Notes: generated from the sequence alone by a model not told the origin. 45,857 bases of DNA from an uncultured Planctomycetaceae bacterium (GCA_964351535.1 CAYGPA010000001.1:21454-67310), one strand, 5' to 3'; shown: positions 1,686 through 43,662, numbered from the stretch's first letter. Program-made: numbers and translations.

Positions 1686-1770
1686 AGGGACGGCCCGGGT
1701 GCGCCTCGCGGGCCGTGGTTGCGGTGCGGACTCGCACCGGGTCCCTTCCCCACTGCCCGGGAGCCTCGCC

Positions 1771-11994: not shown

Positions 11995-12076
11995 CGAAGC
12001 GCGCGCGGCCTTCCCACTGCCCCGACAGGCTCCTGGCCCGAACGATTCACGAGCACGCAGCCGAAACGACACAATC

Positions 12077-12093
12077 GGCGGCCTTTGGCCGCC
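12077..12093 (+). terminator. Short GC hairpin GGCGGCC-TTT-GGCCGCC downstream of the TPR gene (weak terminator candidate)
   Basis: Perfect 7-bp stem with a 3-nt loop, 83 nt after the stop at 11994. There is no clear T-tract. Confidence 0.3.
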
Positions 12094-12135
12094 TCTCGGC
12101 GCCTGCCCGGGTCCGCCCCACTTCGCGCAGTGCAG

Positions 12136-12175
12136 GCCCGGGTCGGCCCGGCTCGGCCCGGGTCGGCCCGGCTCC
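12136..12175. repeat. 20-nt tandem direct repeat x2 ('gcccgggtcggcccggctcg' / 'gcccgggtcggcccggctcc')
   Basis: Read directly; the copies match at 19 of 20 positions. It ends about 20 nt upstream of ATG 12197. Confidence 0.7.
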
Positions 12176-12196
12176 GGCCGAGGCGCGCGCCGCAGT

Positions 12197-13018: not shown

Positions 13019-13027
13019 GGCTTCGAC

Positions 13028-19796: not shown

Positions 19797-21189
19797 AGCC
19801 GAGGGCGCGCAGGGCCTCGAGGTTCTCGGCGGACACTCCGGGCGCCACCTTCGGCGCCGAGAGCTGCACGCCCTCGGCGTACTCGAGCGGGAAGCCCGCC
19901 GGGTCCGGGTCGTCGCGGATCAGCTCGTCGAGCAGCCGCGCGGGCAGCTCGTCGGGCCGCCAGGGCCGCGGGTCCAGCTCGAGCGGATCCTCGCGCAGGT
20001 CGTACGTGCGGCGCGAGGAGATCGCGCGCTCCTCCCCCACGACCGCGACGACCCACTTGTCGTCCGCGCGCAGCGCGCCGCGCCACTGCACCGCCTTGCG
20101 CGAGGCCTCGAAGAAGACGACCCGATCGGCCGGCGGCTCGGTGCGCCGCAGGTCGATTCCTGGTCCCGTCCGGTCCACGACTCCCGCGGCGCCCAGCAGC
20201 GTCGCGAACACGTCGACGCCCGACGCCAGGCCGCGCACGCGCCCGGGAGCGACCCCGGGCCCGCGCAGCATCAGCGGCACGTGCACGATGTCCTCGTACA
20301 CGTGGTAGCCGTGGTCGAACCAGCGCTCGCGATTGGCCATGGTCTCGCCGTGGTCGGCGGTGAGCAGCACGAGGGCGTCGTCGACGTCCGCCGTGCGGGC
20401 GTAGCCGTCGAGCAAACGCCCGACCTGCGCGTCGGCGTAGCGGATCTCGGCGTCGTAGCGATCGACGTACTCCAGCGCGTCGTCGACGCCCTCGAGCACG
20501 CCGTAGGTCGGGATCCGATCGACCTCGAGCGGCGCGGTGCCCTCGTGGTCGAACGCGTCACCCCAGCCCTCCGGCGGCCGGTAGGGACCGTGCGGGTCGA
20601 TGTAGTGCACCCACAGGAACAGCGGGCGCTCCGGATCGCGATCGCGCGCGAGCCACAGCAGGGCCGCGTTGGTCGTGTCCTCGGCGGTGCGCTCGAACAT
20701 GACGCGCTGCGACTCGCGCAGCGCGACGAAGTCGTCGAAGTGGTCGAAGCGGCTCCCGAGGCCCATGGCCTCGTCGGTCAGCACCATGTTCGAGACGAAG
20801 GCCGCGGTCTGATAGGCCTCCGGCAGACGCTCGGGAATCAGCTCGACCTCCTCCGGCACGAGCTGGAAGAAGAGCCGCACGCCGTGCTCCTGCGGCAAGC
20901 GGCCCGACAGCATGCTGACGACGCTGGGCGAGGTCGCGGCCTCGGCGGCGTAGGCGCGCTCCAGAACGCGTCCCTCTCCGAACCAGCGGTCGAGGTGCGG
21001 CGTCGTGTCGCGGGGGTAGCCGTACAGCCCGAGATGACCGGCGCGCAGCGTGTCGATCGTGATCAGGATCACGTCGCCGCCGGGCTCCCGGCTCTCGGGC
21101 CCCCCGGAAGGCCCGCAGGCCGCGGCCAGCAGTCCCGCCAGTGCGACCAGCCGCCGCATCACGCGCGACCGCCGTGCCCCAGGCGCCAT
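19786..21189 (-). CDS. Sulfatase-fold (alkaline-phosphatase superfamily) hydrolase/transferase lacking the C/S-x-P-x-R formylglycine motif
   Basis: 'DVILITIDTLRAGHLGLYGYPRDTTPHLDRW', 'LLTADHGE' and 'HVPLMLRGPG' are sulfatase-family blocks. The nucleophile position reads 'AATSPSVVSMLSG' (nt 20920-20934), that is T-S-P-S-V rather than C-x-P-x-R. Signal 'MRRLVALAGLLAAAC'. The start is ATG 21189 or ATG 21159. The 3' end overlaps the start of the downstream GT-C gene by 11 nt. Confidence 0.8.
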   Translation of the reverse strand: MAPGARRSRVMRRLVALAGLLAAACGPSGGPESREPGGDVILITIDTLRAGHLGLYGYPRDTTPHLDRWFGEGRVLERAYAAEAATSPSVVSMLSGRLPQEHGVRLFFQLVPEEVELIPERLPEAYQTAAFVSNMVLTDEAMGLGSRFDHFDDFVALRESQRVMFERTAEDTTNAALLWLARDRDPERPLFLWVHYIDPHGPYRPPEGWGDAFDHEGTAPLEVDRIPTYGVLEGVDDALEYVDRYDAEIRYADAQVGRLLDGYARTADVDDALVLLTADHGETMANRERWFDHGYHVYEDIVHVPLMLRGPGVAPGRVRGLASGVDVFATLLGAAGVVDRTGPGIDLRRTEPPADRVVFFEASRKAVQWRGALRADDKWVVAVVGEERAISSRRTYDLREDPLELDPRPWRPDELPARLLDELIRDDPDPAGFPLEYAEGVQLSAPKVAPGVSAENLEALRALGYAE

Positions 21190-21408
21190 CGCGCTCGGGA
21201 TAGGGACGTGCGGAGCGCTGGGTCGACGGTGCATGCTGGGTCGCGAAATCACGTTCGCCGGCGGCGCGAACTCCCCTCGCCTCACCAGGCCGGATTCTCG
21301 GCTCGCGGCCGACGCCGCGCAAGACCCCGACCACTCGCCGCGAACGTTCCAGAGCATAGAATCGCAGAAGGGCGCACGGCGCGTCCGCCAGATCTCGAGG
21401 AGGAGACC

Positions 21409-22926
21409 ATGCCGAAGAACATCGTCCTGTGCTTCGACGGGACCAGCAACGAACCCAGCGACGCGGTGCAGGCGCACACGAACGCCGGCGGCATCGAGGA
21501 CCAGAACATCACGAACGTGCTGAAGCTGCACCTGCTCCTGGGCGGTGATCTGGTCGGCGGCAGCCGCTTCGACGACCAGATCAGCTTCTACCACCCCGGC
21601 GTGGGCACGTACGGCGGCAAGGTACGGCGGATCTTCAACGCCGCGTTCGCACCGGACCAGCTCGACGTCGGCCGCATCATCCGCGCCGGCGTCGCCGACC
21701 TGCAGCGCGCCTACGAGCCGGGCGACCGCGTGTTCGTGCTGGGCTTCAGTCGCGGCGCAGCGATCGCCCGACGCTTCGCCTGCGTGCTCCCCGACCTCTT
21801 CGAGGGCGACTCGCCGCGCATCCGCTTCCTGCTGGCCTTCGACACCGTCGCCTCGATCGGCAAGCCGAACCTGGACGACAGCGAGAAGCCGGTCTCCGAC
21901 GTCGTCTTCGAGGACGGCACCGTCTCGAAGACGCTCGACGAGGCGCTGCACCTGGTCTCGCTCGACGACAGCCGCAAGGCGTTCCTGCCGACCCTGATGA
22001 ACGCGGAGGAGCGCGTGACCGAGGTCTGGTTCCCCGGGGTCCACTCCGACGTCGGCGGAGGCTACCGCGACGACGGACTCTCCGACCTGACGCTGCAGTT
22101 CGCGCTCGACGAGTTCCAGCGGCGCGAGCTCGGCCTGCGCACCCTCGCCCCGGCGGACCTCGACTTCGACTCGCTCGTGGCACCCGACGCGGACTACGAC
22201 ATCGACCTCGACGACGTCGAGCTCCAGCCCGACCCGCTGGGCAAGGCGCACTTCCAGCGCCGCCTCCCGTTCGCCACGCGCCTGACCCTGACGGTGCGCA
22301 CGCCGCGGGTGAACGTGGCGGACCGACCCAGCGACGTGCCGCCGCTCGTGCACTGGAGCGTGTCCGAGCGCATCCACGGCTCCGGCGGCTACCGTCCGCG
22401 CGCGCTGCGACGCCTGCTGCACGAGATCCTGCATCCCGATCAGTCGCGCGAGTCCTACGCCGGTCTGGCGCACCACCTGCGGGCCGGCGCCCGCCGCCTG
22501 ACCTCGCTGCGCGTCGACGAGACCCGCGAGCTCTCGTGCAGCGCGCACCAGCGCCTCAACGCGAGCGGGATCGCCCTCGAGCAGGGCGCGCAGTACCTGT
22601 TCGAGGTCCCGCCCGGACAGGTCTGGCACGACGCCTCGATCGCCTGCGGGCCGCAGGGCTGGACCCTCGACGAGGTGAAGCTCGGCCTGAAGGAGGTCGC
22701 CATCGCCGCGGTCCAGTGGCGTCGCCGCAAGCGCGACGCGAACTGGTTCGCGCTGGTCGGCTCGGTCGGGGACTCCGACGACGAGCTCTTCGAGCTGCTG
22801 CACCACACCGACGTGCCCTACGTGCCCGAGCGCACCGGCGAGCTGTGCACCTTCGCCAACGACCTCCCGAGCCGCTACGGGAACAATGCCGGGGCGATGC
22901 GCTTCCTGGTGCGCCGCGTCGGTTGA
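21409..22926 (+). CDS. DUF2235 (Tle1-type alpha/beta hydrolase) protein with a C-terminal PA-IL/LecA-like domain
   Basis: Strong Shine-Dalgarno sequence 'gaggaggag' ending 5 nt before ATG 21409. 'NIVLCFDGTSNEP...NITNVLKL', 'VFVLGFSRGAAIARRFA' (GxSxG) and 'VWFPGVHSDVGGGY' are DUF2235 hallmarks. The C-terminal part 'WHDASIACGPQGW...NWFALVGSVG...CTFANDLPSRYGNNAGAMRFLV' resembles the end of PA-IL, '...[21 protein letters not shown]'. Confidence 0.85.
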   Translation: MPKNIVLCFDGTSNEPSDAVQAHTNAGGIEDQNITNVLKLHLLLGGDLVGGSRFDDQISFYHPGVGTYGGKVRRIFNAAFAPDQLDVGRIIRAGVADLQRAYEPGDRVFVLGFSRGAAIARRFACVLPDLFEGDSPRIRFLLAFDTVASIGKPNLDDSEKPVSDVVFEDGTVSKTLDEALHLVSLDDSRKAFLPTLMNAEERVTEVWFPGVHSDVGGGYRDDGLSDLTLQFALDEFQRRELGLRTLAPADLDFDSLVAPDADYDIDLDDVELQPDPLGKAHFQRRLPFATRLTLTVRTPRVNVADRPSDVPPLVHWSVSERIHGSGGYRPRALRRLLHEILHPDQSRESYAGLAHHLRAGARRLTSLRVDETRELSCSAHQRLNASGIALEQGAQYLFEVPPGQVWHDASIACGPQGWTLDEVKLGLKEVAIAAVQWRRRKRDANWFALVGSVGDSDDELFELLHHTDVPYVPERTGELCTFANDLPSRYGNNAGAMRFLVRRVG

Positions 22927-24365: not shown

Positions 24366-25247
24366 TCAGAGGTCGCGATCGGGGACGTCGAAGGTGTTGC
24401 CCTGGGACAGGTCGCCGGTCTCGAAGCCGCGGCCGAACCAGCGTCTGCGCTGCGCTGAGGTGCCGTGGGTGAACGACTCCGGGACGACGCGCCCCTGCGA
24501 GCGCCGCTGGATCGTGTCGTCGCCGATCTGGCTCGCGGCGTTCAGCGCCTCCTCGATGTCCCCCGCCTCGAGCAGCGCCGCGCGCGCCTGGACGTGATGG
24601 GCCCAGACGCCGGCCAGGAAGTCCGCCTGGAGTTCGAGCCGCACCGACAGCTCGTTCGCCTCGACCCGGCTCGACCCGCGCTGCAAGTCGCGCATCTGGC
24701 CCGAGATCCCGAGCAGGTTCTGGACGTGGTGCCCGACCTCGTGCGCGACGACGTACGCGCGCGCGAAGTCCCCCGCGGCCCCGAACTGGTCCATGAGCTG
24801 CTCCAGGAAGCCCAGGTCGAGGTACACGCTGCTGTCGCCGGGGCAGTAGAACGGCCCGACGGCCGCGTCCTGCGAGCCGCAGGCCGACCGCACCGCGTCG
24901 CGGAACAGCACGAGCGTCGGCTCGCGGTACGGCGTGTCCGTGTCGTCCAGCAGCGCGTGCCAGACGTCCTCGGTCTCCGCGAGCACGACCGCCAGGAACT
25001 CGCGCAGCTCCGCTTCCTGCGGCGACTCCGCGGCCGTCTCGCCCCCACTCGAGCGGCCGACCGGCGCACTGGCGCCCACGCCCTGCTGCCCGACGACGTC
25101 GAGCAGCGCCTGGGGGTCGCCGCCCATCAGCACCGCGATCACGGCGATGATCAGCACCCCGAGCCCGCCGCCAACGGCCAGCCTGGGCGCGGCCGAGCCG
25201 CGCCTATCCTCGATGTTGTCGCTCTGACGGCGTCCTCGCCAACGCAT
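24366..25247 (-). CDS. ypfJ: YpfJ-family neutral zinc metallopeptidase
   Basis: The canonical N-terminus 'MRWRGRRQSDNIEDRRG' is followed by a TM segment. Zinc motif 'HEVGHHVQ'. The start is the internal ATG at 25247 of track ORF 24366..25538. Confidence 0.85.
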   Translation of the reverse strand: MRWRGRRQSDNIEDRRGSAAPRLAVGGGLGVLIIAVIAVLMGGDPQALLDVVGQQGVGASAPVGRSSGGETAAESPQEAELREFLAVVLAETEDVWHALLDDTDTPYREPTLVLFRDAVRSACGSQDAAVGPFYCPGDSSVYLDLGFLEQLMDQFGAAGDFARAYVVAHEVGHHVQNLLGISGQMRDLQRGSSRVEANELSVRLELQADFLAGVWAHHVQARAALLEAGDIEEALNAASQIGDDTIQRRSQGRVVPESFTHGTSAQRRRWFGRGFETGDLSQGNTFDVPDRDL

Positions 25248-25431
25248 GAAACGGCCTCCGGGACCAGGGGGGATGCTAACCCTCGCCGCGCGGTGCGTCG
25301 CGGGCGATACGGAAGGTCTTTCCCGATGCCCGAACGACCTCAAGGTCCGCTCGCGTCCCGCCGAACGGATCCTGGTCCCCGCCACCCTCAGCGTCCGCCC
25401 GGAGTCGCTGCCGTTCGACGCGAGCGCCCCC

Positions 25432-26592
25432 ATGAGCTCCCCGGCCAAGCCCCCCCGCATCCTGCTCGTCGACGACGAACCCATCCAGACGAGCGGACTG
25501 GCGCGCGCCTTTCGCGGCGAGCCCTGGGAGCTGGACACGGCCCAGTCCGCGGAGGAAGCCCTGCGGCTCTTCTCGCGGTCGCCCTACGACGTCGTCGTCA
25601 CCGACGAGACCATGCCGGGCCTGCGAGGTTCGGAGCTCCTGGCGCAGCTTCGCGAGACCACCCCCGACACCGTGCGCATCGTGCTGTCCGGTCAGGCCGA
25701 CCTCGGCGCGGCCGTGAACGCGATCAACGCCGCCGAGGTCTTTCGGTTCCTCCAGAAGCCGTGCTCGTTCTCCGAGGTGTCCGCGGCGATCCGCGACGGG
25801 CTGGAGCTGCGCGCGCAGCAGGCGGAGTTCCACGCCTGGCGCGGAGCGCGGAATCCCGCGGACGCGGCGCAACGCGGGGCGGAGTTCGACGAAGCTCTGG
25901 CGAGTCTCTGGATGGGGTACCAGCCGGTCCTGCGCGCCGCCGACGAGTCGCTCTACGGCTACGAGGCGCTCGTCCGCACCGACAGCGAGGTGCTGGTCCA
26001 TCCAGGCCTGCTGTTCTCCGCCGCGGAGCGCCTCGGTCGCTCCGCCGAGCTCAGCCGCTGCATCCGCGACCGCGTGGCGCGCGACATCTCCGCGGCTCCC
26101 GCGGAAGCGGCGATCCTCGTCAACGTGACCGCCGACGACCTGGCCGACTCCGCGTTCGTGAACGGCGAGGATCCGCTGCGCGCCCACTCCGAGAGAATCG
26201 TCCTGGAGGTCACCGAGCGGCACTCCTTCAAGGAGGACACGCACCTCCAGCAACGCGTGGCCTCGCTGCGGCGGCACGGGTACCGGATCGCGGTGGACGA
26301 CCTGGGCTCCGGCTACTCGGGCCTGACGAGCTTCATGCTCGTGTCGCCCGACGTGGTCAAGTTCGACATGGAGCTGACCCGCGGCATCGACACCTCGCCC
26401 ACCCAGCAGCGCCTGATCGAGCTCATGACCGGGCTGTGCCGGCAGCTCGGGATCCTCACGGTCGCCGAGGGGATCGAGACCGAGGCCGAGCTCGAGACGG
26501 TGACGCGGCTCGGCTGCGACCTGCTGCAGGGATTCCTGTTCGGCGCCGCCGCGCGCGACTTCGCGCTGCCGGGCTCGCGGCGCGTAGCCTGA
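25432..26592 (+). CDS. Response regulator: receiver domain plus EAL (c-di-GMP phosphodiesterase) domain
   Basis: REC: 'ILLVDDEP...DVVVTDETMPGLRGSELL...LSGQAD...FLQKP'. EAL domain: 'YQPVL...YGYEALVR', 'LEVTERH', 'IAVDDLGSGYSGLTSF', 'VKFDMELTRGI', 'VAEGIETEAE', 'LLQGFLFG'. Confidence 0.9.
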   Translation: MSSPAKPPRILLVDDEPIQTSGLARAFRGEPWELDTAQSAEEALRLFSRSPYDVVVTDETMPGLRGSELLAQLRETTPDTVRIVLSGQADLGAAVNAINAAEVFRFLQKPCSFSEVSAAIRDGLELRAQQAEFHAWRGARNPADAAQRGAEFDEALASLWMGYQPVLRAADESLYGYEALVRTDSEVLVHPGLLFSAAERLGRSAELSRCIRDRVARDISAAPAEAAILVNVTADDLADSAFVNGEDPLRAHSERIVLEVTERHSFKEDTHLQQRVASLRRHGYRIAVDDLGSGYSGLTSFMLVSPDVVKFDMELTRGIDTSPTQQRLIELMTGLCRQLGILTVAEGIETEAELETVTRLGCDLLQGFLFGAAARDFALPGSRRVA

Positions 26593-31927: not shown

Positions 31928-32232
31928 GCCCTCCCGCCGTGTATCCGCTTCTCGCGCCGCTCTTCGCCCTCGCGGCGCTGGCCGCCTGGTCGCGCTGGGC
32001 GCGCGCCGGGGGCGCGCTGCGCTGGTGGATCGGGGTTGCGTGCCTGGCCGTCGGGATCGACGCCACGCGCGTCCTGCTGCAGCGCGTCGAAGACGATGCA
32101 GGCGGCCCGGGAACGCGTGCCGTGACGGCGGGCGCGCTGCTCGTGCTGGCGTTCTTCGCCGCCCGCGCCTGGTCGCGGCTCGGCCCGACGGCGCGCGACG
32201 AGCCTCAGGGACCCGGGCCGGCGGAGCGGTAG
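31924..32232 (+). CDS. Small hypothetical membrane protein coupled to msrP (not MsrQ-like)
   Basis: GTG 31924 overlaps the msrP TGA (GTGA). Third-position GC is high. There are three hydrophobic segments and no histidine residues. The 3' end overlaps the convergent fdhA end by 28 nt. Confidence 0.4.
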   Translation: MSPPAVYPLLAPLFALAALAAWSRWARAGGALRWWIGVACLAVGIDATRVLLQRVEDDAGGPGTRAVTAGALLVLAFFAARAWSRLGPTARDEPQGPGPAER

Positions 32233-35009
32233 TAGCTGCCGGGGAAGAAGGACGAGGCCTCGCGGCCGGGCCCGTCCACGCGCGCGATCTCCGCCGCGCA
32301 GACCTTGTATTCCGCGGTGCCCGTCACCGGGTCGCCCGCGTCGTTGGTCAGGACGTTGGCGCGCGCCTCGGCGAAGTGCAGCGGCGTCCAGACGCAGCCG
32401 GGCCGGACCTGACGCGACACGATCGCGCGCGCCTGAACGCTGCCGCGTCGGGTGCGGATCTCGACCATGTCGCCGTCGGCGATCTTGCGGCGCTTGGCGT
32501 CTCGCGGGTGGATCTCGACGAAAGGCTCGGACTGCTTGGCGGCGAGCCCCGACTCGCGCCGCGTCTGCGTGGCCGCGTTGTAGTGGTAGAGCGTGCGCCC
32601 GGTCGAGAGCAGCAGGCCGTACTCCTCGTCGGGCAGCTCCATCGGCGGCCGGTAGTCGACGGCCTGGAACAGCCCCTTGCCGCGCAGGACGCCGCCCTCG
32701 TGCAGGAACTCGGTCCCGGGGTGGGTGGAGTCCGGGCACGGCCACTGCAGGCCGGTCTTGCCGTGGGGCCGCTCGGCGTCGAGACGGGCGTGGCTGATCC
32801 CGGCGAGCTTGGGGGCGTCCTTGACCATCTCGTCGTAGACCTCGGCCGGCCCCGCGTAGGCCCACGACGCGCCGCTCGCGTTGGCGAGGTCGACGAGGAT
32901 GCTCCAGTCGGCGCGCGCCTCGCCCGGGGGCTCCACGGCCTTGCGCACGCGCTGGACGCGGCGCTCGGAGTTCGTGAACACACCGTCCTTCTCGGCGAAC
33001 ACCGCCGCGGGCAGCACGACGTCGGCGAAGCGCGTCGTCTCGTTCAGGAACGGCTCCTGGACGACGAGGAACTCCAGGCGGTTCATGGCCGCTTCGAGAC
33101 GCAGCGCGTTGGGCTCGGACAGCACGATGTCCTCCCCCATCACGAACATCCCGTAGATGCCCTCGCCGACCTTCTTCATCATCTCGTTCAGGTTCAGGCC
33201 AGGATCGGGCGAGAGCTTCACGCCCCAGGAGCGCTCGTACTTGGCGTGCACCTCGGGGTCGTCGATGCGCTGGTAGCCCGGAAGGAAGATCGGCGTCGCA
33301 CCCGAGTCGTTGGCCCCCTGCACGTTGTTCTGACCACGCAGCGGGTTCATGCCCGCCGAGCGCTTGCCGAGGTGGCCGGTCATGAGCACGAGGTTCGCCA
33401 GCGCGTAGACGTTGTCGGTACCGTGCGTGTGCTCCGTGATGCCCAGCGTGTAGTAGATCCCCGCCCGCTCGGTCGTGGCGTAGCGACGCGCCGTCCAGCG
33501 GATCTCCTCGGCGGAGATGCCGGTCACCTTCTCGGCCTCCTCAGGGGTGTAGCGCGCGAGCGTGTCGACCACGCTCTGGAAGCCCTCGGTGTGCTGCTCG
33601 ATGAACGCGCGGTCGACGAGGTCCTCCTCGACGATCACGTGGGCCATCGCGTTCAGCAGCCAGACGTCGGTGCCCGGAGCGAGCTGCAGGTGCTTCGACG
33701 CGATGGTCGTCATCCAGATCGCGCGCGGATCGGCCACGACCAGCGTCGCGCCGCGACGCACGGCCCGCTTCATCTCCATGGCGATGATCGGGTGCGCCTC
33801 GCTCGTGTTGCTGCCGATCACGAACAGGAAGTCGGCGTCACGAATCTCGCCGATCGAGTTCGTCATCGCGCCCGCTCCGAAGGTGGTGACCAGACCGGCC
33901 ACCGTGGGAGCGTGTCATGTCGCCGCGCACTGGTGCACGTTGTTCGTGCCGTACACCGCGCGCGACAGCTTCTGGACCAGGTAGTTCTCCTCGCAGGTGC
34001 AGCGCGACGAGCTGACGAACCCGAGGGAGTCCGCTCCGTGACGCTCGGCCACGCCCCGGAGGCCGGCCGCCGCGACGCGCAGCGCCTCCTCCCAGGTGGT
34101 CTCGTGCAGCTCGCCGTCGGCCCCGCGCAAGAGCGGCTTCGTCAGGCGATCGGGATGGTGCACGAAGTCGTAGGCGAAGCGCCCCTTCACGCACAGGTTG
34201 CCGTCGTTCGTCGTGCTGCCCGGCGGCGGGCTCGTGACCTTGACGAGGCGCCCGCGCCCGCCGTCCGCCTCGCGGTCGACGTTCAGGTCGAGCTGACAGC
34301 CGACGCCGCAGAAGTTGCACGTCGAGCGCACCTTCTCGAGCTGGACCTCGGGCTTGGCGTGCCGCGTGAGCGGCAGCTTCTCGCCCATGGCTCCGGTCGG
34401 GCAGACGTCGATGCAGCCGCCGCAGAGCTCGCAGGTCGTGTCCAGCAGCGACAGGCTGTCGGCCGTGGAGATCGTCGTCTCCGAGCCCCGCCCGGTCAGC
34501 GTGATCGCGGTGACGCCCTCGACCTCGTCGCAGTAGCGCGTGCAGCGCGCGCAGAGGATGCAGGTGTCGGGCTCGAAGTGGATGTAGGGGTTGCGGTCGC
34601 CGGGGCGGCCGGCGCGCTTCGACGGCAGCTTGGTCCAGTCCGTCGGGGCCTCGTAGCGCCGCGCCATCTCGAGCAGCTCGTTCGGCGCGCTGCTCGCGGG
34701 CTGCGCGTCGGTCGCGGGCTGATCGGTCAGGTACAGCGCGAGCAGCGTCTTGCGGTGGCGGTCGATGCGCTCGCTCTCCGACTGCACGACCATGCCGGGG
34801 GCGGCGGGCGTCGCGCACGCGGGCGCGAGGCGGCGCCAGCCCTCGATCTCGACCAGGCACGTCCGGCACGCGCCGGCCGGGTCGAGCCGCGGATCGTGGC
34901 ACAGGGTCGGGATCTCGATGTCGAGTCGCCGCGCGACGTCGAGCACGGTCTCGCCCGGCTCGAACGCGACGGTCTGTCCTTCGAGGGTGATCTGATGGGG
35001 TTGGATCAC
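32205..35009 (-). CDS. fdhA: Formate dehydrogenase alpha subunit (NAD-type; N-terminal 2Fe-2S/4Fe-4S domains plus Mo/W-bis-MGD domain) with selenocysteine at the in-frame TGA 33915-33917
   Basis: Track ORFs 33915..36785 (3' part) and 32205..33902 are one frame interrupted by TGA. Read-through gives '...[36 protein letters not shown]', which parallels the FdhF Sec context 'CARV-U-HGPSVAGL'. The N-terminus 'VIQPHQITLEGQTVAFEPGETVLDVARRLDIEIPTLCHDPRL..CRTCLVEIEG' is NuoG-like. GTG 35009 overlaps the upstream TGA. Confidence 0.9.
33873..33917 (-). promoter_or_regulatory. UGA(Sec) codon plus bacterial SECIS-like stem-loop
   Basis: On the minus strand the sequence reads UGA CA[CGCUCC]CAC[GGUGGCC]GGUCU[GGUCACC]ACCUUC[GGAGCG]. 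The 7-bp upper stem includes one G-U pair and closes a GGUCU apical loop. The 6-bp lower stem is CGCUCC/GGAGCG. The loop codons GGU CUG sit at the same codon distance from UGA as in E. coli fdhF. Confidence 0.6.
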
Positions 35010-36813: not shown

Positions 36814-37893
36814 TCAGGTCGCGACCAGCTCCGTCAGCCAGCGAGGCTCGGACAGCAGTCCCGCCAGGACCCCGACGCCGTTCAGGAACTCCCGCTCCTC
36901 GACGTGCTCCTCGGGCGTGTGGTCGAGCCGACTGTCGCCGGGCCCGTAGGCGAGGCAGGGACATCCCCACGCGGGCGCGACGACGTTCATGTCCGCCGTT
37001 CCGGTCTTGCGCACGTATCCGGCCCGGCCGCCGCGCCGCGCGATCTGTCGCGCGAGCGCGCGGTGCAGCGCCGTCGTCCGCGGACCGGACCAGGCGGGCA
37101 TGCCGCCCGAGGTCTCCACCGACCACTCGGGCAGGACGCGCTCGAGCCAGGACTGCGCGAGCGGCGGCGGGAGGTCCTCGGGCAGACGCAGGACGACGTC
37201 GAGTCGCGCGCGTTCGCGCAGCCCGGTCGGCCCGGCCTCGACGCGCTCGAGCCGGGTCAGCAGCCGGGTGTAGAGCTCCTCACGGCCGGCGTCGAACTCA
37301 CGCGCGGCACCCTCGAGGCGCTGCCAGGCGGCACAGGCCAGTTCGGACGCGCTCGAGCGGTCGTGCGCACCGTGCCCGCCGTCGACCTCGCGCGAGACGA
37401 GCGCGCGCAAGTACCCCTTGTATCCGAGCGTCATCCGCTCCCACCCGCTGGGCTCGCCGACGACGCAGGCGGCGGGAGCGCGTCGACGCACTGCGTGGCG
37501 CGCGCCGCGGGAGCTCGGCGCCTCTTCCTCCACGCAGCCGATCACCGTGACCCGCGCCGCCAGCCGCCCGTCGCGCGCCGCCCGTGCGGTCGCCGCGACG
37601 AAGGCCACCAGCGGGCCCTTGGCGTCCACGGTTCCCCGGCCGTAGAGGCGCCCGCCCGATCGCCGGACCGGGACCACGCCCGGCACGGTGTCCACGTGGC
37701 CGAGCAGCACCAGCTCCGGCCCGTCCGCGGGCCCGACGGTGCCGACGGCGTTGCCGACGGCGTCGACCGCCGACTCGAACCCGAGCTCCGCCATGCGCGC
37801 GACCAGGAGCTCGGCCGCAGCCGCCTCGTCGCCGCTGACGCTCGGGACGCGGACCAGCTCCTCCAGCAGGTCCAGGGCCTCGCGGTCGTTCAC
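36814..37893 (-). CDS. lysK: [LysW]-lysine hydrolase / acetylornithine deacetylase-type M20 peptidase (LysK)
   Basis: GTG 37893 overlaps the lysJ TGA. 'LLEELVRVPSVSGDE', 'LLGHVDTVP' and 'GRGTVDAKG' are M20 (ArgE/DapE/LysK) motifs. It is the last gene of the lysW cluster. Confidence 0.8.
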   Translation of the reverse strand: MNDREALDLLEELVRVPSVSGDEAAAAELLVARMAELGFESAVDAVGNAVGTVGPADGPELVLLGHVDTVPGVVPVRRSGGRLYGRGTVDAKGPLVAFVAATARAARDGRLAARVTVIGCVEEEAPSSRGARHAVRRRAPAACVVGEPSGWERMTLGYKGYLRALVSREVDGGHGAHDRSSASELACAAWQRLEGAAREFDAGREELYTRLLTRLERVEAGPTGLRERARLDVVLRLPEDLPPPLAQSWLERVLPEWSVETSGGMPAWSGPRTTALHRALARQIARRGGRAGYVRKTGTADMNVVAPAWGCPCLAYGPGDSRLDHTPEEHVEEREFLNGVGVLAGLLSEPRWLTELVAT

Positions 37894-39104
37894 GCGGACA
37901 CCTCCGCGCGCACGCACTGCCCGACGGCCGCCGCGAGCGCTTCGAGCTGTTCCTCGGTGCTGATCAGCGGAGGCAGCAGGCGGAGGACGCGTCGACCCGC
38001 GCCGAGCGCCAGGAAGCCCCGGGCCTGCAGGCTGCGCAGGACCGGCACCACGCCGCCGGGGAGCTCGACCCCGACCATCAGACCCAGGCCGCGGACGTCG
38101 CTCGCCGCGCTTCCGCAGTGCTCCCGCAGGGCGGCGCGCAGGAGCTCGCCGCGAACCGCGGCCGCCTCGACCAGCGCGTGGTCCTCGAGAACTCCGATCG
38201 TGGCCAGGGCCGCGGCGCACGCCAGCGGGTTCCCACCGAACGTCGATCCGTGCGCTCCCTGCGGCAGCTCTCCCGCACTCGCACGCAGCGCGGTCGCGCC
38301 GATCGGAACCCCGCCCGCGAGGCCCTTCGCCAGGCAGACGAGGTCGGGATCCAGCCCGTGATGACGGAACCCGAACCAGCGCCCCGTGCGCCCCATCCCC
38401 GTCTGCACCTCGTCGATCCCGAACAGCGTGCCGTGCGTGCGGCAGAGCTCCTGGACGGCCTGCAGGAAGGTCCCGTCGAGCACGTGCACGCCGCCCTCGC
38501 CCTGGACGACCTCCACCAGGACCAGACCCACGTCGCGCGCGCGAAGCGCCTCCGAGAGCCCGTCGAGATCCCCGGGCGCCACGTGCCGGAACGACTCGAG
38601 GAGCGGCCCCGCTCCGGCGCGGTGATGCGCGCGCCACGTGGCGCTCAGGGATCCGAACGTGCGGCCGTGGAACGCGCGCGCGAGGGCGACGACCCCGGGC
38701 CGCCCGGTCAGGTGGCGCGCGAACTTGATGGCGGCTTCGACCGACTCGGTGCCCGAGTTGCAGAAGAACAGCCGATCGAGAGGGGCGAGTCGCTCGCCCA
38801 GGCGCGCGACGAGCGCCTCGCGGACGGGGCTGCCGAAGCTCGCGGAGCACGCGACGAGCTCGCGGGCCTGCTCGGCGACGGCGCGCGCGATGGCCGGGTG
38901 CGCGTGCCCGAGCACGGCGACGCCCATCATCGACGTGGCGTCGAAGTAGCGCCGCCCCGCGTCGTCGAACACGTACGGCCCTTCCCCGCGGACCAGGTTC
39001 AGCCCGCGGGACCCCGCCAGGCACAGGTCGCGCGCGGGACCCGCGGCGGCGCGCGCATCCGGCGGTTGCCCGGTCGCGGAACCCGGCGAAACCGTGCGGC
39101 TCAA
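37890..39104 (-). CDS. lysJ: [LysW]-aminoadipate semialdehyde / acetylornithine aminotransferase (LysJ, class III PLP)
   Basis: 'GEGPYVFDDAGRRYFD', 'FFCNSGTESVEAAIKFAR', 'LFGIDEVQTGMGRTGRWFGF', 'LAKGLAGGVPIGA' and 'STFGGNPLACAAA'. The TTG start is inferred to overlap the lysZ TGA (TTGA), consistent with the track frame. The exact start is uncertain. Confidence 0.85.
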   Translation of the reverse strand: MSRTVSPGSATGQPPDARAAAGPARDLCLAGSRGLNLVRGEGPYVFDDAGRRYFDATSMMGVAVLGHAHPAIARAVAEQARELVACSASFGSPVREALVARLGERLAPLDRLFFCNSGTESVEAAIKFARHLTGRPGVVALARAFHGRTFGSLSATWRAHHRAGAGPLLESFRHVAPGDLDGLSEALRARDVGLVLVEVVQGEGGVHVLDGTFLQAVQELCRTHGTLFGIDEVQTGMGRTGRWFGFRHHGLDPDLVCLAKGLAGGVPIGATALRASAGELPQGAHGSTFGGNPLACAAALATIGVLEDHALVEAAAVRGELLRAALREHCGSAASDVRGLGLMVGVELPGGVVPVLRSLQARGFLALGAGRRVLRLLPPLISTEEQLEALAAAVGQCVRAEVSA

Positions 39105-39961
39105 GACACTGCCTCCACCGCGCGCTCCGCCGCGATCTGCGTGCCCTCGCCCGCCAGGGCGTCCGTCAGCGGTCGCGCGCGGCGCGCGTCTCCGATGACG
39201 ACCCGTTCGACGCCCGCCGCGAGGGCCTCGCGCGCCCCGAGCAGCTTCTTGCGCATCCGGCCGAGGGCCAGCGGCTCCACCCGGTCGAGCTCGCATGCCG
39301 CCACGAACGGGACGAGCGTCTCGGGCCGCGCGGGATCCTCGAGCAGTCCGCGCACGTTGGTCAGGAGAACCAGCGTCCGGGCCGCGAGGGCTCCCGCGAC
39401 ACAGGCCGCGAGGCGGTCGGCATCCACGTTCAGCATCTCCCCGCTCCCGCCGCAGGCCAGCGGTGCGATCACGGGAACCAGACCGCGCGCGCGCAGCATC
39501 TCCAGGAGTCCCGCGTCGACGTGCTCCGGCCGCCCGGTCCACTCGTCGCGCAGGATGCGGGTGCGGCCGTCGACGACCGCGCGCACCTGGCTCTTGCGGC
39601 GACCCCGGACGCAGGCACCGTCCAGGCCCGACAGACCGAAGGCCGGCACGCCGCGGGAGAGCAGACCTTCCACGAGCTTGCGGTTCAGCAGCGCCGTCGC
39701 CATCGCGAAGGCCTCGAGCGCCGCACGGTCCGTGCGCCGGCTCGTGTGGCCGCTCGGCGACGTGATGAACTCGGCGGGCCGGCCCAGCGCGCTCTGCAGG
39801 AGCGTCGTCGCCTCCGAGCCGCCGTGCACCACGACGGGCAGCACGCGACCCGGCTCGGCCCGTCCCCCCCCGTCCCGCGCCCGCAGGCGGGCGGCGAGAT
39901 CGTCCAGCAGCGGATCCAGCGCGACACCGCGGGCTCCTCCGACCTTCACGACCAGACTCAT
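39101..39961 (-). CDS. lysZ: [LysW]-aminoadipate kinase / acetylglutamate kinase family (LysZ)
   Basis: 'MSLVVKVGGARG', 'VVVHGGS', 'VPVIAPLACGGSGEMLNVDADRLAA' and 'LVLLTNVRGLL' are amino-acid kinase family motifs in cluster context. Confidence 0.85.
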   Translation of the reverse strand: MSLVVKVGGARGVALDPLLDDLAARLRARDGGGRAEPGRVLPVVVHGGSEATTLLQSALGRPAEFITSPSGHTSRRTDRAALEAFAMATALLNRKLVEGLLSRGVPAFGLSGLDGACVRGRRKSQVRAVVDGRTRILRDEWTGRPEHVDAGLLEMLRARGLVPVIAPLACGGSGEMLNVDADRLAACVAGALAARTLVLLTNVRGLLEDPARPETLVPFVAACELDRVEPLALGRMRKKLLGAREALAAGVERVVIGDARRARPLTDALAGEGTQIAAERAVEAVS

Positions 39962-39980
39962 GGCTCTCGTCTCCTCGTTC

Positions 39981-41018
39981 CTAGCCGACGGGGTGCAGTC
40001 CGCGAGCCGCGAGACCGGTGGTCTCGTCCCAGCCCATGGACAGGTTCAAGCACTGCACGGCGCTGCCGGCAGCGCCCTTGCCCAGGTTGTCGAGCGCGCA
40101 CAGGGCCACGACCCGGCGTGAGTCGGGGTCGAACGCGAAGCCCAGGTCCGCGCGATTGGTCCCCCACAGGAGCTTCGGCTCCGGGTGCCGGTAGGCGCCC
40201 GCGCGCTCGTGGACGACGTCGAGGAAGGGCTCGGATGCCACGGCGCCGTGGTAGGCGCGCAGGAGCGCGCGCTCGTCGACCCCGTCGTCGAGGAAAACGT
40301 GGCACGTCGCGAGCGCACCGCGCACGAGTTCGACGGCCGTGATCGACAGGTGGAGGTCGACCTCGGGGAAGGCCTGGATCACCTCGGCCGCGTGGCGGTG
40401 GCCCACGGGCGCGTAGGAGCGGACCACGGCACTGCGCACGGGATGGTGGCTCCCCGCGTTTCCGTCCGCCCCCGCCTCGCTCGAGCCGACCTTGACCTCG
40501 GCGACGACTCGCTCTCCGCGGTTCAGCCACCCCGACCGAGCCAGGGGCAAGAGCGCCAGGTTGACGGCCGTGGCGTTGCAGCCGACCCCGCTGACGTAGC
40601 GCGCGCCCGCGAGGCGTTCTCGTCCGACCTCGGGCAGGCCGTAGACGAAGCGCTCGAGCCACTCCGGCGCGGGATGGTCCGCTCCGTAGCGACGCGCGTA
40701 GTCGTCGGGATCGCGCAGGCGAAAGTCCGCGGAGCAATCGACGATGCGTTCCGCCAGCTGGGCGAAGCGCTCGATCGAGCGCGCCGCGGCTCCGTGCGGC
40801 AGCGCCAGGAAGAGCGCATCGCACGGCCGCAGGTCCTCGATGGACGTGAACCGCGGGAGCTCGACACCGCGCAGGTGGGGATGAACGCGGCGCACCGGCT
40901 GACCGGCGAGGCGCTCGGAAGTCACCTGGACGACGTCGACGAGGGGGTGGTCGACGAGCAGGCGCAGGAGCTCGCCTCCGACGTAGCCCGAGGCGCCGGC
41001 CAGGGCCACGCGGATCAC
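39981..41018 (-). CDS. lysY: [LysW]-aminoadipate 6-phosphate reductase / N-acetyl-gamma-glutamyl-phosphate reductase family (LysY)
   Basis: GTG 41018 overlaps the lysX TGA. 'VALAGASGYVGGELLRLL', 'CSADFRL', catalytic-Cys block 'VSGVGCNATA', and 'ALDNLGKGAAGSAVQCLN'. Confidence 0.9.
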   Translation of the reverse strand: MIRVALAGASGYVGGELLRLLVDHPLVDVVQVTSERLAGQPVRRVHPHLRGVELPRFTSIEDLRPCDALFLALPHGAAARSIERFAQLAERIVDCSADFRLRDPDDYARRYGADHPAPEWLERFVYGLPEVGRERLAGARYVSGVGCNATAVNLALLPLARSGWLNRGERVVAEVKVGSSEAGADGNAGSHHPVRSAVVRSYAPVGHRHAAEVIQAFPEVDLHLSITAVELVRGALATCHVFLDDGVDERALLRAYHGAVASEPFLDVVHERAGAYRHPEPKLLWGTNRADLGFAFDPDSRRVVALCALDNLGKGAAGSAVQCLNLSMGWDETTGLAARGLHPVG

Positions 41019-41914
41019 GGCGCGGCCTCCGCGAGTCGCGGCGCGGCCTCGTTCCGGGCGCGCTGCACGTCGAGGACGTGCGCCACGATCCGGTCGGCCA
41101 GGTCCACTCCGGTCGGCTCGATGCTGTTGCGAAACTCCATCGAGTGGTTCACCTCCAGCACCAGGAGCCGCCCGTCGACGTCCTCCACGAGGTCCACGGC
41201 GACGACGTCGCCCTCGACGGCGCGCGCGGCTCCGCAGGCGAGCTCGGCGAGTTCGCGGGTCACGGGGCAGTTGCTCGTACGAGCTCCGCGAGCCGTGTTG
41301 GTCACCCAGTGCTCGCTCTCGCGATAGACCGCGGCCACGGTCTCGTCGCCGATCACGAAGGCCCGCACGTCGCGCCCCGGCTTGCGCACGAAGGCTTGGA
41401 GGTAGAGCGAGCGGTGGGTCCAGCCGCCGAGGACCTCCCGGTCCTCCAGCACGGCCTCCGCGGCGTGGCGATCGTTGAGGCGGGCCACGAGGCGTCCCCA
41501 CGAGCCCACGGCCGGTTTGATCACGGCCGGATAGCCCAGCTCGTCCTCCAGCAGTTGCAGGGCCTCCTTGCTGGAGAAGGCGAGCCGGGTGCGGGGCTGG
41601 GGCAGCCCCGCCCGCGCCAGCTGGACGCTGGTCCGGATCTTGTCCCCGCAGAGGCGGACGCAGCGGGCCGTGTTCACACAACGGAGGCCCAGGCTCTCCA
41701 GGACCTCGAGCGCGTGAACGGCGGAACCGAACTTCACGGAGCGGTCGTGCACGACGCCCACGTCCGCGAGCGACGCGGGCGGAGGACTGCCGTCCAGCGG
41801 CAGGACCAGGCTGCGCTCGTCGAGCCTTACGACCTCGACGCCGCGCTGCGCGTAGGCCGCGAGCAAGAACTTCTCCTCGGGGCGTACCCGGGATGCCAGG
41901 AGGGCGATGCGCAC
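41015..41914 (-). CDS. lysX: RimK/LysX-type ATP-grasp ligase ([LysW]-aminoadipate ligase)
   Basis: GTG 41914 lies 3 nt after the lysW stop. The ATP-grasp pattern includes 'YPAVIKPAVGSWGRLV', 'LYLQAFV..PGRDVRAFVIG' and 'VVAVDLVED..GRLLVLEVNHSMEFRN'. Confidence 0.85.
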   Translation of the reverse strand: MRIALLASRVRPEEKFLLAAYAQRGVEVVRLDERSLVLPLDGSPPPASLADVGVVHDRSVKFGSAVHALEVLESLGLRCVNTARCVRLCGDKIRTSVQLARAGLPQPRTRLAFSSKEALQLLEDELGYPAVIKPAVGSWGRLVARLNDRHAAEAVLEDREVLGGWTHRSLYLQAFVRKPGRDVRAFVIGDETVAAVYRESEHWVTNTARGARTSNCPVTRELAELACGAARAVEGDVVAVDLVEDVDGRLLVLEVNHSMEFRNSIEPTGVDLADRIVAHVLDVQRARNEAAPRLAEAAP

Positions 41915-41917
41915 GCC

Positions 41918-42082
41918 CTATTCCCCCCAGTCCTCGTCGACTTCCGGCGCCGGCGCCACCGCCGGCGGGGAGAGCCCCACGACCTCGAGCTCGGCCTCGC
42001 AGCTACCGCAGGCGAGGACCTCCCCCTCCACGATGTCGGCGGGCAAGTCCAGCGGAGACGCGCATTCGGTGCAGGCAATCAT
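41918..42082 (-). CDS. lysW: Amino-group carrier protein LysW (54 aa; below the ORF-track length cutoff)
   Basis: My own translation of the minus strand gives MIACTECASPLDLPADIVEGEVLACGSCEAELEVVGLSPPAVAPAPEVDEDWGE*. It has a zinc-ribbon CxxC...CxxC and the diagnostic acidic C-terminus 'EDWGE'. Shine-Dalgarno-like 'gaaagga' lies upstream. Confidence 0.9.
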   Translation of the reverse strand: MIACTECASPLDLPADIVEGEVLACGSCEAELEVVGLSPPAVAPAPEVDEDWGE

Positions 42083-42147
42083 GGTTCCGGGTTCCTTTCA
42101 GGGAGCTCGGACCCACGGTGGACCGGGAAGCGTTCGCCATGCAAAGC

Positions 42148-42181
42148 GAAGCCGCCGGCCCCCCGAGGGGCCGGCGGCTTC
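42148..42181 (-). terminator. Perfect 15-bp GC-rich hairpin (GAAGCCGCCGGCCCC-UCGG-GGGGCCGGCGGCUUC): candidate attenuator/terminator between the leader ORF and lysW
   Basis: Read directly and cross-checked against the track translation of the plus-strand ORF 41907..42482. On the minus strand it is followed by GCUUUGCAUGG, a short U run. On the plus strand it is followed by GUUGUUCUGCU. It sits 66 nt upstream of the lysW ATG and 26 nt downstream of the leader-ORF stop. Confidence 0.7.
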
Positions 42182-42206
42182 GTTGTTCTGCTCGAATACG
42201 AAAGAC

Positions 42207-42266
42207 CTAGCCGACCCCGCGGGGGCACAGCTTCTTCTTCAGGGCTTTCGAGACTCGAATCGTCAT
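42207..42266 (-). CDS. Candidate 19-aa leader peptide MTIRVSKALKKKLCPRGVG with three tandem AAG Lys codons
   Basis: Minus strand: ATG ACG ATT CGA GTC TCG AAA GCC CTG AAG AAG AAG CTG TGC CCC CGC GGG GTC GGC TAG. It is codon-aligned antisense to the track frame '...DLADPAGAQLLLQGFRDSNRH...', which confirms the bases. Four Lys in 19 codons is striking in a very GC-rich, Lys-poor genome. No clear Shine-Dalgarno sequence is present. Confidence 0.5.
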   Translation of the reverse strand: MTIRVSKALKKKLCPRGVG

Positions 42267-42351
42267 GGATCGTCGCGCTTCGCGCGCGTTGCTGATCCGG
42301 AGCCTAGGTCTTCCGAGGCCCAGCACAAGCACCTTCTCGGATTCCGAGCGA

Positions 42352-43506
42352 TCAGTAGCCCGCGTGCTTGTCGACCACGTTCAACAGCGGTTCGCCCCGC
42401 GCGAAGCGCCGCAGGTTCTCGCGGAACAGGTCGCGCACGCGGTCGCCGGTCATGGCCGAGCGGCCGGCGACGTGCGGCGTGAGGACCACGTTGGGAGCGG
42501 ACCAGAGCGGGTGTCCCGCGGGCAGCGGCTCGGGGTCGGTGACGTCCAGGCACGCGCCGCCCAGGTGTCCGCTCGAGAGGGCCTCGACGAGTGCGTCGGT
42601 GTCGACCACGGCTCCGCGGGCGATGTTCACGAGCAAGGCCCCCGCCTTCATGGCGAGCAGCCGCTCGCGGGAGATCAGGCCGCGCGTCTCATCGGTGAGC
42701 GGAACGCAGAGCACGACGACGTCGGCCTCCCCGAGCCAGGCGTCGAGGTCGGTCGAGACTCCGGCGCGACGCACGAACTCCGGCGCGGGCCGCGCGGTCC
42801 GGCCGATGCCCCACACCTCCATGCCGAAGCCCGCGCCGCGGCGCGCCACCTCCGTACCGATGCCGCCGAGCCCGACGACGAGGAGCCGCCGGCCGTGCAG
42901 CGCGAACGGCTCGCGCTCCGGGCTGGAGCGGTCCCACTGACCGGCGCGCTGCCGCTCCGCGAAGACATCGAGGCCGCGCGTCAACTGGAGCAGCATCGCG
43001 AACACGTGGTCGGCGATGGTCGGGCCGTGCATGCCCTGCATGTTGGTCAGCACGATGTCGTCCCGCTCGACGAGCGCCGTCACGGCGAGGGCGCGGTCGA
43101 CGCCCGCGCTGAAGGCCTGCACCCACTTCAGATCGGGTGCCGCGCCCAGCAGCTCGGCGGTCGCGTAGCGCGCGTCCATGCCGTCCAGCTCGCCGGCCCG
43201 CGCGAGCGCCTCCTCGGAGGACAGGTTGCGCAGCAGACGCACGTTCGGAGCGAGCTCGGACAGGAGGCGGGCCTCGTCGTCGTCGATGCGGCCGGCCAGG
43301 AACGTCAGCGGAACGCGTCCACCGTCGGTGTCCACGGCGACGACGGCGTGCCGCGTGGAGCCCAGGTCCGGAGCTGCGTCCCCCGTACGAGACGAGCCTG
43401 CGTCCCCGGCGCGGCAGGAGGACGTCGCGAGCGCGACGCCGAGAACGAGCGGAGCGAGCCATCGTGTCCGCGGCGGGCTGCAGGGCGACGTGAGGTGTGC
43501 ATGCAT
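42352..43506 (-). CDS. D-isomer-specific 2-hydroxyacid dehydrogenase family protein with an N-terminal signal/anchor-like extension
   Basis: 'LLVVGLGGIGTEVARR' is the NAD-binding motif. 'VVVLCVPLTDETRGLI', 'LVNIARGAVVD' and 'LDVTDPEPLPAGHPLW..PNVVLTPHVAG' are family blocks. N-terminus 'MHAHLTSPCSPPRTRWLAPLVLGVALATSSC'. The start is ATG 43506 or GTG/ATG 43527. Confidence 0.85.
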   Translation of the reverse strand: MHAHLTSPCSPPRTRWLAPLVLGVALATSSCRAGDAGSSRTGDAAPDLGSTRHAVVAVDTDGGRVPLTFLAGRIDDDEARLLSELAPNVRLLRNLSSEEALARAGELDGMDARYATAELLGAAPDLKWVQAFSAGVDRALAVTALVERDDIVLTNMQGMHGPTIADHVFAMLLQLTRGLDVFAERQRAGQWDRSSPEREPFALHGRRLLVVGLGGIGTEVARRGAGFGMEVWGIGRTARPAPEFVRRAGVSTDLDAWLGEADVVVLCVPLTDETRGLISRERLLAMKAGALLVNIARGAVVDTDALVEALSSGHLGGACLDVTDPEPLPAGHPLWSAPNVVLTPHVAGRSAMTGDRVRDLFRENLRRFARGEPLLNVVDKHAGY

Positions 43507-43662
43507 GCCCACACTCTCCCCGCACACTCGCTTTGAAGCAAGCCGGCGCGACGCGCCCGAGCCGGCCGAGGCCGATGAAGCCGGGGGGGGCGGAACAATG
43601 CCCCGCGCCAGGAGCGCGCCGTCTTGGCATACTCTCCCCCTCCACCTCTCAGGAGCCCCGTC

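Follow-up and report, generated by a model that had tools for sequence, protein, structure and literature searches.

A conserved leader with in-frame lysine codons upstream of lysW: a probable ribosome-mediated attenuator of a LysW-type operon in an uncultured bacterium

Locus and leader open reading frame

The sequence analysed here, referred to as the window, is a 45,857-nt stretch of DNA from an uncultured bacterium (CAYGPA010000001.1:21454-67310), and the element under study is the intergenic spacer in front of its lysWXYZJK operon. All window coordinates are given for the minus strand. The stop codon of a 2-hydroxyacid dehydrogenase gene (Pfam 2-Hacid_dh_C; TGA, 42354-42352) and the ATG of lysW (42082) enclose a spacer of 269 nt (42351-42083), whose GC content is 0.60-0.67 vs 0.70-0.78 in the flanks. 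It contains a promoter-like motif, a short upstream open reading frame (uORF) rich in Lys codons and a strong hairpin, and is probably the 5' leader of the operon, where it would control transcription by classical ribosome-mediated attenuation, with charged tRNA-Lys as the measure of lysine. Searches with the operon proteins of the relative L167 (tblastn) located the operon genes (Table 1) and did not find hcs, hacAB or hicdh in the 45.8-kb window.

The uORF starts with ATG at 42266, ends with TAG at 42209-42207 and encodes the 19 residues MTIRVSKALKKKLCPRGVG. Four of its 19 codons specify Lys (AAA at codon 7 and three consecutive AAG at codons 10-12), compared with 22 of 2112 (1.0%) in seven neighbouring genes (binomial P = 4e-5). 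The proteins of these genes (36814-43527, minus strand) are extremely Lys-poor, and LysW has no Lys at all. Such a low Lys content would make Lys codons a sensitive sensor.

Upstream of the uORF, -35 and -10 hexamers are predicted, with a transcription start predicted near 42296-42293. The pattern TTGNNN-N16-18-[TC]ANNNT ends 31-52 nt 5' of the uORF start in 8 of 11 leaders scanned and is otherwise rare (38 matches in 287 kb of the studied loci). Given the position of this motif, the uORF would fall within the transcript. Between the predicted start site and the uORF lies a small GC hairpin (42274-42286), for which counterparts were recognized by eye in L064, L066 and L167; its role may be to make the 5' end more stable or to influence initiation.

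Alternative RNA folds in the window

The leader RNA can be divided into four segments (Table 1). Segments 1 and 2 form a leader stem (42258-42192, -28.1 kcal/mol) whose sole sizeable unpaired stretch, GAAGAAGA, corresponds to the KKK codons, and a CCCC-CGC-GGGG hairpin is present in the leader. Segments 3 and 4 form the putative terminator hairpin, in which a perfect 15-bp helix (42181-42148) extends to 16 bp (42182-42147, -39.1 kcal/mol, z = -7.1). The sequence GGGGUCGGC (42218-42210), with the UAG immediately 3' of it, pairs over 9 bp including one G-U with GCCGGCCCC (-21.5 kcal/mol). This pairing is part of a larger antiterminator, in which segment 2 (42218-42199; GGGGUCGGC..GGU..UUUCG) engages all 16 nt of the terminator 5' arm (-27.5 kcal/mol, z = -4.4; none of 200 shuffles as good). 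Leader stem, antiterminator and terminator (-28.1, -27.5 and -39.1 kcal/mol) were regarded as comparable in energy.

Several of these features had been described in an earlier note on this DNA. The limits and low GC of the spacer agree with it, the 19-codon ORF with three consecutive AAG codons and a fourth Lys codon was read directly, the CCCC(CGC)GGGG pairing was found in the folds, and the 15-bp hairpin proved to be one of 16 bp. The note had also proposed a 12-bp long-range helix enclosing the uORF. The complementarity between CGGAAGACCUAG (42315-42304) and CUAGGUCUUUCG exists. However, CGGAAGACCUAG overlaps the spacer and -10 hexamer of the promoter-like motif, the pairing is unused in the minimum-energy fold of the 269-nt spacer, and L001, the closest of the relatives listed, lacks an equivalent. 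The helix was therefore rejected as a part of the mechanism.

Relatives carrying the leader

Relatives were gathered by LysX searches (a contig scan, which gave at least one close relative, L001, followed by homologous proteins and their encoding contigs; LysX 56-77% identical); LysW as protein query gave three candidates. The window itself was assigned to NCBI assembly GCA_030427005.1. Twelve distinct leaders were compared, from the window, L001, L002, L060, L063, L064, L066, L144, L163, L167, L168 and L169. L065 is a near-identical copy of L064 and was not counted as distinct. The 11 leaders besides that of the window share its architecture, which combines a promoter-like motif and a short ORF containing Lys codons in frame with a leader stem and a hairpin. 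The uORF and its Lys codons are thus conserved in relatives, a check that the earlier note had called for.

L001 is the closest relative among the matches listed (LysX 77% identical) and has the same synteny as the window. Its uORF also has 19 codons (MFTRTSKAKKIKLCPRGVG and a stop). The stretch CTGTGCCCCCGCGGGGTCGGC and the terminator are identical between the two; the spacers have diverged in their upstream halves. Among relatives with 56-69% LysX identity, homologous leaders were found wherever an intergenic gap precedes the lysine genes. L057, L058 and L062, in which lysW directly follows the homoaconitase and homoisocitrate dehydrogenase genes, have no comparable gap.

Within the ORFs of the 12 distinct leaders, 35 AAR triplets lie in frame 0, and 7 and 2 in the other frames; in all 12, AAR triplets are in frame with the start codon. 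Different codons separate the Lys codons (K-A-L-K-K-K, K-A-K-K-I-K, K-A-K-P-K, K-S-S-K-I-K), with a K-A-K core common to several members, and the distance from start codon to Lys codon ranges from 5 to 40 codons. A stop codon, be it UAG, UGA or UAA, directly follows GGGGNCGG[C/U] in 8 of the 12. Retention of the stop position while its identity varies argues that the uORF is translated.

The genes on either side differ between relatives. In L060, L063 and L066 the upstream neighbour is divergently oriented, so that the hairpin cannot be the terminator of that gene. In L144, L167 and L169 a leader of the same family precedes hcs, the homocitrate synthase gene with which the aminoadipate lysine pathway begins. 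The element therefore goes with whichever gene comes first in an aminoadipate lysine operon, hcs or lysW, and the L144 leader indicates that a split pathway can carry the leader on more than one operon. Relatives with LysX 64-69% identical have hcs-hacAB-hicdh joined to lysWXYZJK behind the leader. These operons support the view, already put forward in the earlier note, that the window cluster serves lysine rather than arginine synthesis.

Table 1. Positions of leader features in the window, and uORFs of related leaders (uORFs given as peptide followed by stop).
Feature	Position	Strand	Remarks
Predicted -35 hexamer TTGTGC	42323..42328	-	motif match, positionally conserved
Predicted -10 hexamer TAGGCT	42301..42306	-	16 nt from -35; L001 counterpart TTGTGC-17-TAGCTT in the same place
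Small GC hairpin CGCGC-GAA-GCGCG	42274..42286	-	folding
Leader ORF, 19 codons + UAG	42207..42266	-	MTIRVSKALKKKLCPRGVG-stop; homologous ORFs in the other 11 distinct leaders
Lys codon 7, AAA	42246..42248	-	within 5' strand of outer leader helix; part of K-A-K core
Lys codons 10-12, AAG x3	42231..42239	-	8-nt internal loop of leader stem; proposed stall site
Segment 1, 5' half of leader stem (UCGAGU, CGAAAG, CCU, AGCUG, GCCCC)	42222..42258	-	fold -28.1 kcal/mol, z = -2.4
Segment 2, GGGGUCGGC-UAG-GUCUUUCGUAUUCGA	42192..42218	-	pairs with segment 1 or terminator 5' arm; holds stop codon
Segment 3, terminator 5' arm CGAAGCCGCCGGCCCC	42167..42182	-	folding and covariation
Segment 4, terminator 3' arm GGGGCCGGCGGCUUCG	42147..42162	-	folding and covariation; loop UCGG at 42166-42163
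Weak U-enriched tail CUUUGCAUGG	42137..42146	-	sequence after hairpin
lysW, first regulated gene	41918..42082	-	Shine-Dalgarno-like GAAAGGA upstream
lysX, lysY, lysZ, lysJ, lysK, remaining operon genes	36814..41914	-	tblastn with L167 operon proteins
L060 uORF			...NKAKPKPRPLGDG-stop
L063 uORF			...SSKSSKIKPAPPGG...-stop
L064 uORF			MHLATIKPSLKKKLYPSGTV-stop
L066 uORF			...TKAKAR-stop
L163 uORF			...AKAKSSEKPLSRGSG-stop
L168 uORF			MMFAFPCKQEAQLTPTRGRPVLA-stop
L002 uORF			...TKAKPAG...-stop
L167 uORF			MYTTKPKAAQESTLPHRGG-stop; before hcs in full operon
L169 uORF			MTTQLSFARFSSKAKPLPLGER-stop; before hcs in full operon
L144 uORF and hairpin	606-826 of reverse complement	reverse	...GKKGAKKKLNPLGAG-stop; about 60 nt before hcs
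Tandem units, L009	about 2500-2830
Tandem units, L003	about 1600-2010
Tandem units, L020	about 2380-2750

Covariation and structural tests

For covariation analysis, an alignment of 12 rows (A3; 11 distinct leaders and L065) and a covariance model (R1) were used. R1 recovered all 12 training rows as well as L020, L003 and L002, which were absent from the training set; a second copy of the leader was not found with it in the window. In the terminator and the two inner leader helices, 90.5% of the cells in A3 pair and nine pairs have changed on both sides. The covariation score of these helices was 0.286; shuffles gave 0.149, with none of 500 reaching the observed score, and slid partners gave 0.02-0.10.

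The antiterminator was assessed by folding. In all 12 leaders, the fold from segment 2 through the terminator 5' arm beats shuffles (z -1.2 to -4.1) and pairs 11-16 nt of that arm. Every member has a segment 2 whose first part looks like the terminator 3' arm, and this mimicry is the signature of competition between terminator and antiterminator. L163 has a distinct terminator of 21 bp (top CCGGACC/GGUCCGG), with which its segment 2, GGGUCCGG, gives a perfect 8-bp antiterminator. When ribosome footprints were masked in equilibrium folding, a crude calculation that cannot represent co-transcriptional kinetics, the terminator arm showed less pairing when the ribosome sat at the stop codon than when it sat at the best Lys-stall position in 9 of 11 leaders, which supports the model in these nine.

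Proposed mechanism

We infer that the uORF is translated, that termination takes place at the hairpin and that the outcome depends on lysine. Transcription would start about 30 nt upstream of the 19-codon leader ORF. With no ribosome on the leader, or after a ribosome has run through, the RNA would fold into the long stem (segments 1:2), the 16-bp GC hairpin (3:4) would form, and transcription would stop before lysW. If Lys-tRNA is scarce, a ribosome would stall at the AAA or at AAG-AAG-AAG and cover segment 1, leaving segment 2 (GGGGUCGGC...CUUUCG) free to pair with the emerging terminator 5' arm. This 2:3 pairing would block the terminator, and lysW to lysK would be transcribed. If lysine is plentiful, the ribosome would reach the UAG directly after GGGGUCGGC and mask segment 2, so that the terminator forms.

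The features expected of a classical attenuator can be compared with those of the leader. A short ORF with start and stop codons lies in the leader and, judged by the predicted start site, downstream of a promoter. The uORF is enriched in codons for lysine, the product of the operon. The pairings 1:2, 2:3 and 3:4 are mutually exclusive, the proposed stall site lies in segment 1 and the stop codon at segment 2, and the downstream genes make the amino acid that would be sensed. As for the intrinsic terminator, the hairpin is strong, conserved and covarying, and its tail is U-enriched only; clear U-tracts are present in lower-GC relatives. The ribosome-mediated lysine attenuator proposed in the earlier note is supported by the 11 further leaders, the divergent neighbours, the association with hcs, the in-frame AAR triplets, the stop placement and the covariation.

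Several observations weigh against a lysine attenuator. The sequences are related, and the z-scores and counts are not independent. For the 9-bp antiterminator of the earlier note, the pairing itself holds and in fact extends further, but support from column covariation does not: 79.6% of the cells in A3 pair, compensatory double changes are zero and the value is not above shuffles. The ribosome-masking simulation fails to tell the two states apart in L063 and L066, and for the ribosome-free leader of the window it predicts that the terminator arm is paired. In this high-GC group the U-tract is weak (CUUUGCAUGG), which makes intrinsic termination less certain. Inspection by eye showed no Shine-Dalgarno sequence before the uORFs, whereas lysW has GAAAGGA. 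Lys codons are few in L066, L167, L169 and L002 (two each) and in L168, where a single one is followed by CAA GAG, both one-step neighbours of Lys codons. The uORF stops several codons past segment 2 in L063, L168 and L002. In L066 (2149-2282), the uORF (GTG)NNRTGTKAKAR ends at a UGA just before a CCCCCC/GGGGGG hairpin, a stop position that departs from the scheme in which segment 2 is masked at the stop codon; the leader is identical in L067 (two samples).

Alternative explanations

Four other explanations of the element were weighed. The one that survives best, although we consider it unlikely, is a structured RNA switch, either riboswitch-like with a small ligand or based on protein-mediated attenuation by an RNA-binding protein, in which the Lys codons are an incidental A-rich loop. 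The 3' part of the ORF is identical in nucleotides between the window and L001, with zero synonymous changes, which indicates constraint on the RNA. The AAG/AAA triplets lie in an exposed internal loop, and the missing Shine-Dalgarno sequences, the L066 ORF that ends before the inner hairpin and the single Lys codon of L168 fit such a switch as well. Against such a switch, AAR triplets keep a 3-nt register in frame with the start codon in 12 of 12 leaders, and the stop codon is kept in position and variable in identity. The variable distance between start and Lys codons fits an ORF better than a fixed fold, the stems are simple, without a conserved multi-helix junction or conserved loop sequence, and Rfam gave no match, the lysine riboswitch and T-box included.

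A translated uORF could also belong to an element that acts after transcription, on mRNA stability or lysW translation, or that terminates transcription with the help of Rho. The weak U-tract of the high-GC members and the 65 nt of partly conserved sequence between hairpin and lysW are compatible with this; but equivalent hairpins in lower-GC relatives have U-tracts typical of intrinsic terminators, the hairpin is clear of the lysW ribosome-binding site, and segment 2 mimics the terminator 3' arm. Together these points make such a role very improbable.

The earlier note had named, as a case that would speak against it, a hairpin that merely terminates the upstream 2-hydroxyacid dehydrogenase gene. 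On this explanation the short ORF and its Lys codons would be due to chance. In the window and in L001 the hairpin does lie downstream of a co-oriented gene. Similar GC hairpins (GCCGCCGGCC...GGCCGGCGGC) are moreover common in metagenomes, where they are generic, often palindromic and unlinked to lys genes. Synteny contradicts this explanation: the unit of uORF and hairpin follows divergent genes in three relatives (L060, L063 and L066) and stands before hcs in three others (L144, L167 and L169). In the window, the hairpin begins about 170 nt past the dehydrogenase stop with the promoter-like motif in between, and chance is a poor account of the Lys enrichment (P = 4e-5). We therefore regard a dehydrogenase terminator as a highly improbable reading.

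Least credible of all is a function of the peptide itself, either as a micropeptide or as a nascent chain that responds to free lysine by arresting the ribosome at the stop codon, in the manner of TnaC or SpeFL with their ligands: Pro-x-Gly motifs do recur near the C-terminus and many ORFs end in Gly-stop, but the CCCC...GGGG RNA hairpin accounts for the Pro and Gly residues, the final residues differ widely (VG, DG, TV, AG, GG, SG, ER, LA, TS, SS, AR) and the N-terminal parts are unrelated.

The specificity of the hairpin sequence was seen in a metagenome scan with the terminator-hairpin pattern. It returned 95 stretches (L068-L162), nearly all of them generic GC hairpins without lys genes, and L144 was the sole true member of the family. 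Hairpin sequence alone is therefore not diagnostic. Hairpins of the type (A)GCCGCCGGCC-loop-GGCCGGCGGCT were common in the scan, many of them palindromic enough to match both strands; they resemble general-purpose terminators of GC-rich bacteria that may work in both directions.

Wider distribution of lysine-rich uORFs before lysW

The earlier note had implied that a lysine leader directly before lysW is rare, and had suggested a scan upstream of lysW for short ORFs with Lys codons and a hairpin. Lys-rich short ORFs were found there in several groups, and the implied rarity did not hold, as Lys-rich uORFs recur across phyla. They are present in 11 of 40 lysW-upstream intervals, compared with 37 of 1100 control intervals of the same loci (P = 6e-8). 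Those found belong to Phycisphaerae (L012, with MTLVSALKSAKSKACPSGQALWCIAV and a stop, L022, L015, L044 and L046), to other Planctomycetota (L003, L020) and to Anaerolineales (L009, L016, L018 and L021, e.g. MTNRETISILKKKCLKRPEPGPG and a stop). In lower-GC relatives the Lys-rich uORFs are followed by hairpins with clear U-tracts. Two tandem units, each consisting of a Lys-rich uORF and a U-tailed terminator, precede lysW in the Planctomycetota MAGs L003 and L020 and in the Anaerolineales L009, L018 and L021, an arrangement that suggests serial attenuators. In the distant lineages the ORF runs well past the inner hairpin, and a duplex test around the stop codon therefore missed segment 2.

Whether all these leaders form one family is, in our estimate, evenly balanced. 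Such a family of lysine-sensing leader-peptide attenuators, so far uncatalogued, would span several phyla (Planctomycetota, Phycisphaerae, Anaerolineales and the unclassified lineage of the window) and act on LysW/aminoadipate operons. It would stand before hcs or lysW depending on how the cluster is split, sometimes as two tandem units, and would have an ancestral K-A-K core, with the position of the stop codon fixed relative to the antiterminator strand.

Other observations

Between the terminator and lysW, the window (42083-42146, minus strand) and L001 (1515-1589) share the blocks CCGUGGGUCCG and GAAAGGA.CCCGGAACC-AUG, and this conservation exceeds what the Shine-Dalgarno sequence alone accounts for. 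In L167, one ORF of 740 residues (11966-14188) replaces lysZ and lysJ, which are separate genes in the window; the equivalent ORF of the near-identical L059 matches amino-acid kinase and aminotransferase Pfam families. In L169, the region a few kb upstream of the hcs leader (882-4829) holds transposase genes of the IS66 family and a reverse transcriptase of the group II intron type. Further window genes that matched Pfam families have no tie to the leader. They encode a Ser/Thr kinase with TPR repeats (6151-9087, minus strand), a protein with a Tle1-like phospholipase domain of type VI secretion systems (T6SS; 19687-22926, plus strand), a neutral zinc metallopeptidase (24366-25583, minus strand) and a molybdopterin oxidoreductase (32205-33914, minus strand).

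Comparison with known systems and significance

Tsubouchi and colleagues are said to have described, in J Biol Chem in 2005, lysine leader-peptide attenuation for the hcs cluster of Thermus thermophilus. The leaders compared here resemble that attenuator, as described, in having a short leader ORF with Lys codons and a stem-loop terminator before aminoadipate lysine genes, and those of L144, L167 and L169 also stand before hcs. In contrast, the window element stands directly before lysW, because the cluster is split and no hcs, hacAB or hicdh was found in the 45.8 kb; it belongs to another, uncultured lineage, and its U-tract is weak. The Deinococcus murrayi lysW locus (L004), which excludes the hcs region, gave no match to R1. 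To our knowledge, Thermus is the only experimental case of lysine leader-peptide attenuation, and no paper combining LysW, attenuation and leader was found in the literature searched.

With the enterobacterial attenuators trpL, hisL, thrL, leuL and pheL (Rfam leader families), the window leader shares the four-segment logic, with regulatory codons in segment 1, a stop codon adjoining segment 2, competition between 2:3 and 3:4 pairing and the cognate biosynthetic operon downstream. It differs from them in the amino acid that it is proposed to sense, lysine, in a GC-rich terminator with a poor U-tract, and in having no sequence similarity, Rfam match or Shine-Dalgarno sequence. The lysine riboswitch (L-box, RF00168) likewise controls lysine biosynthesis genes from a 5' leader, often via transcription termination, but binds lysine itself through an aptamer of five helices and about 180 nt, whereas the window leader is a simple stem with a terminator; RF00168 had no match in the window at the gathering threshold and none in 41900-42500 at E-values up to 10. 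T-box leaders also sense tRNA charging through terminator/antiterminator competition, with a codon displayed in a loop. Unlike these, the window leader has several in-frame Lys codons inside an ORF with start and stop, and no T-box sequence or Stem I; the T-box covariance model had no match in the window, the surroundings of the spacer included. Rfam as a whole gave nothing at the gathering threshold for the whole window, and only noise around the spacer at E-values up to 10. Read as a lysine attenuator, the window leader is a conserved regulatory element of known mechanism, not a new mechanism.

The analysis assigns a probable function and regulatory logic to the spacer before a LysW-type operon in an uncultured, high-GC and Lys-poor bacterium (about 1% Lys), and supports reading its cluster as one for lysine rather than arginine biosynthesis. 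Lysine leader-peptide attenuation, which has no Rfam model, would thereby recur in at least three lineages besides Thermus. R1 and A3 could seed an RNA family and could help to annotate LysW clusters as Lys- or Arg-specific, and the leader family offers candidate weak-U-tract terminators for the study of termination in high-GC bacteria.

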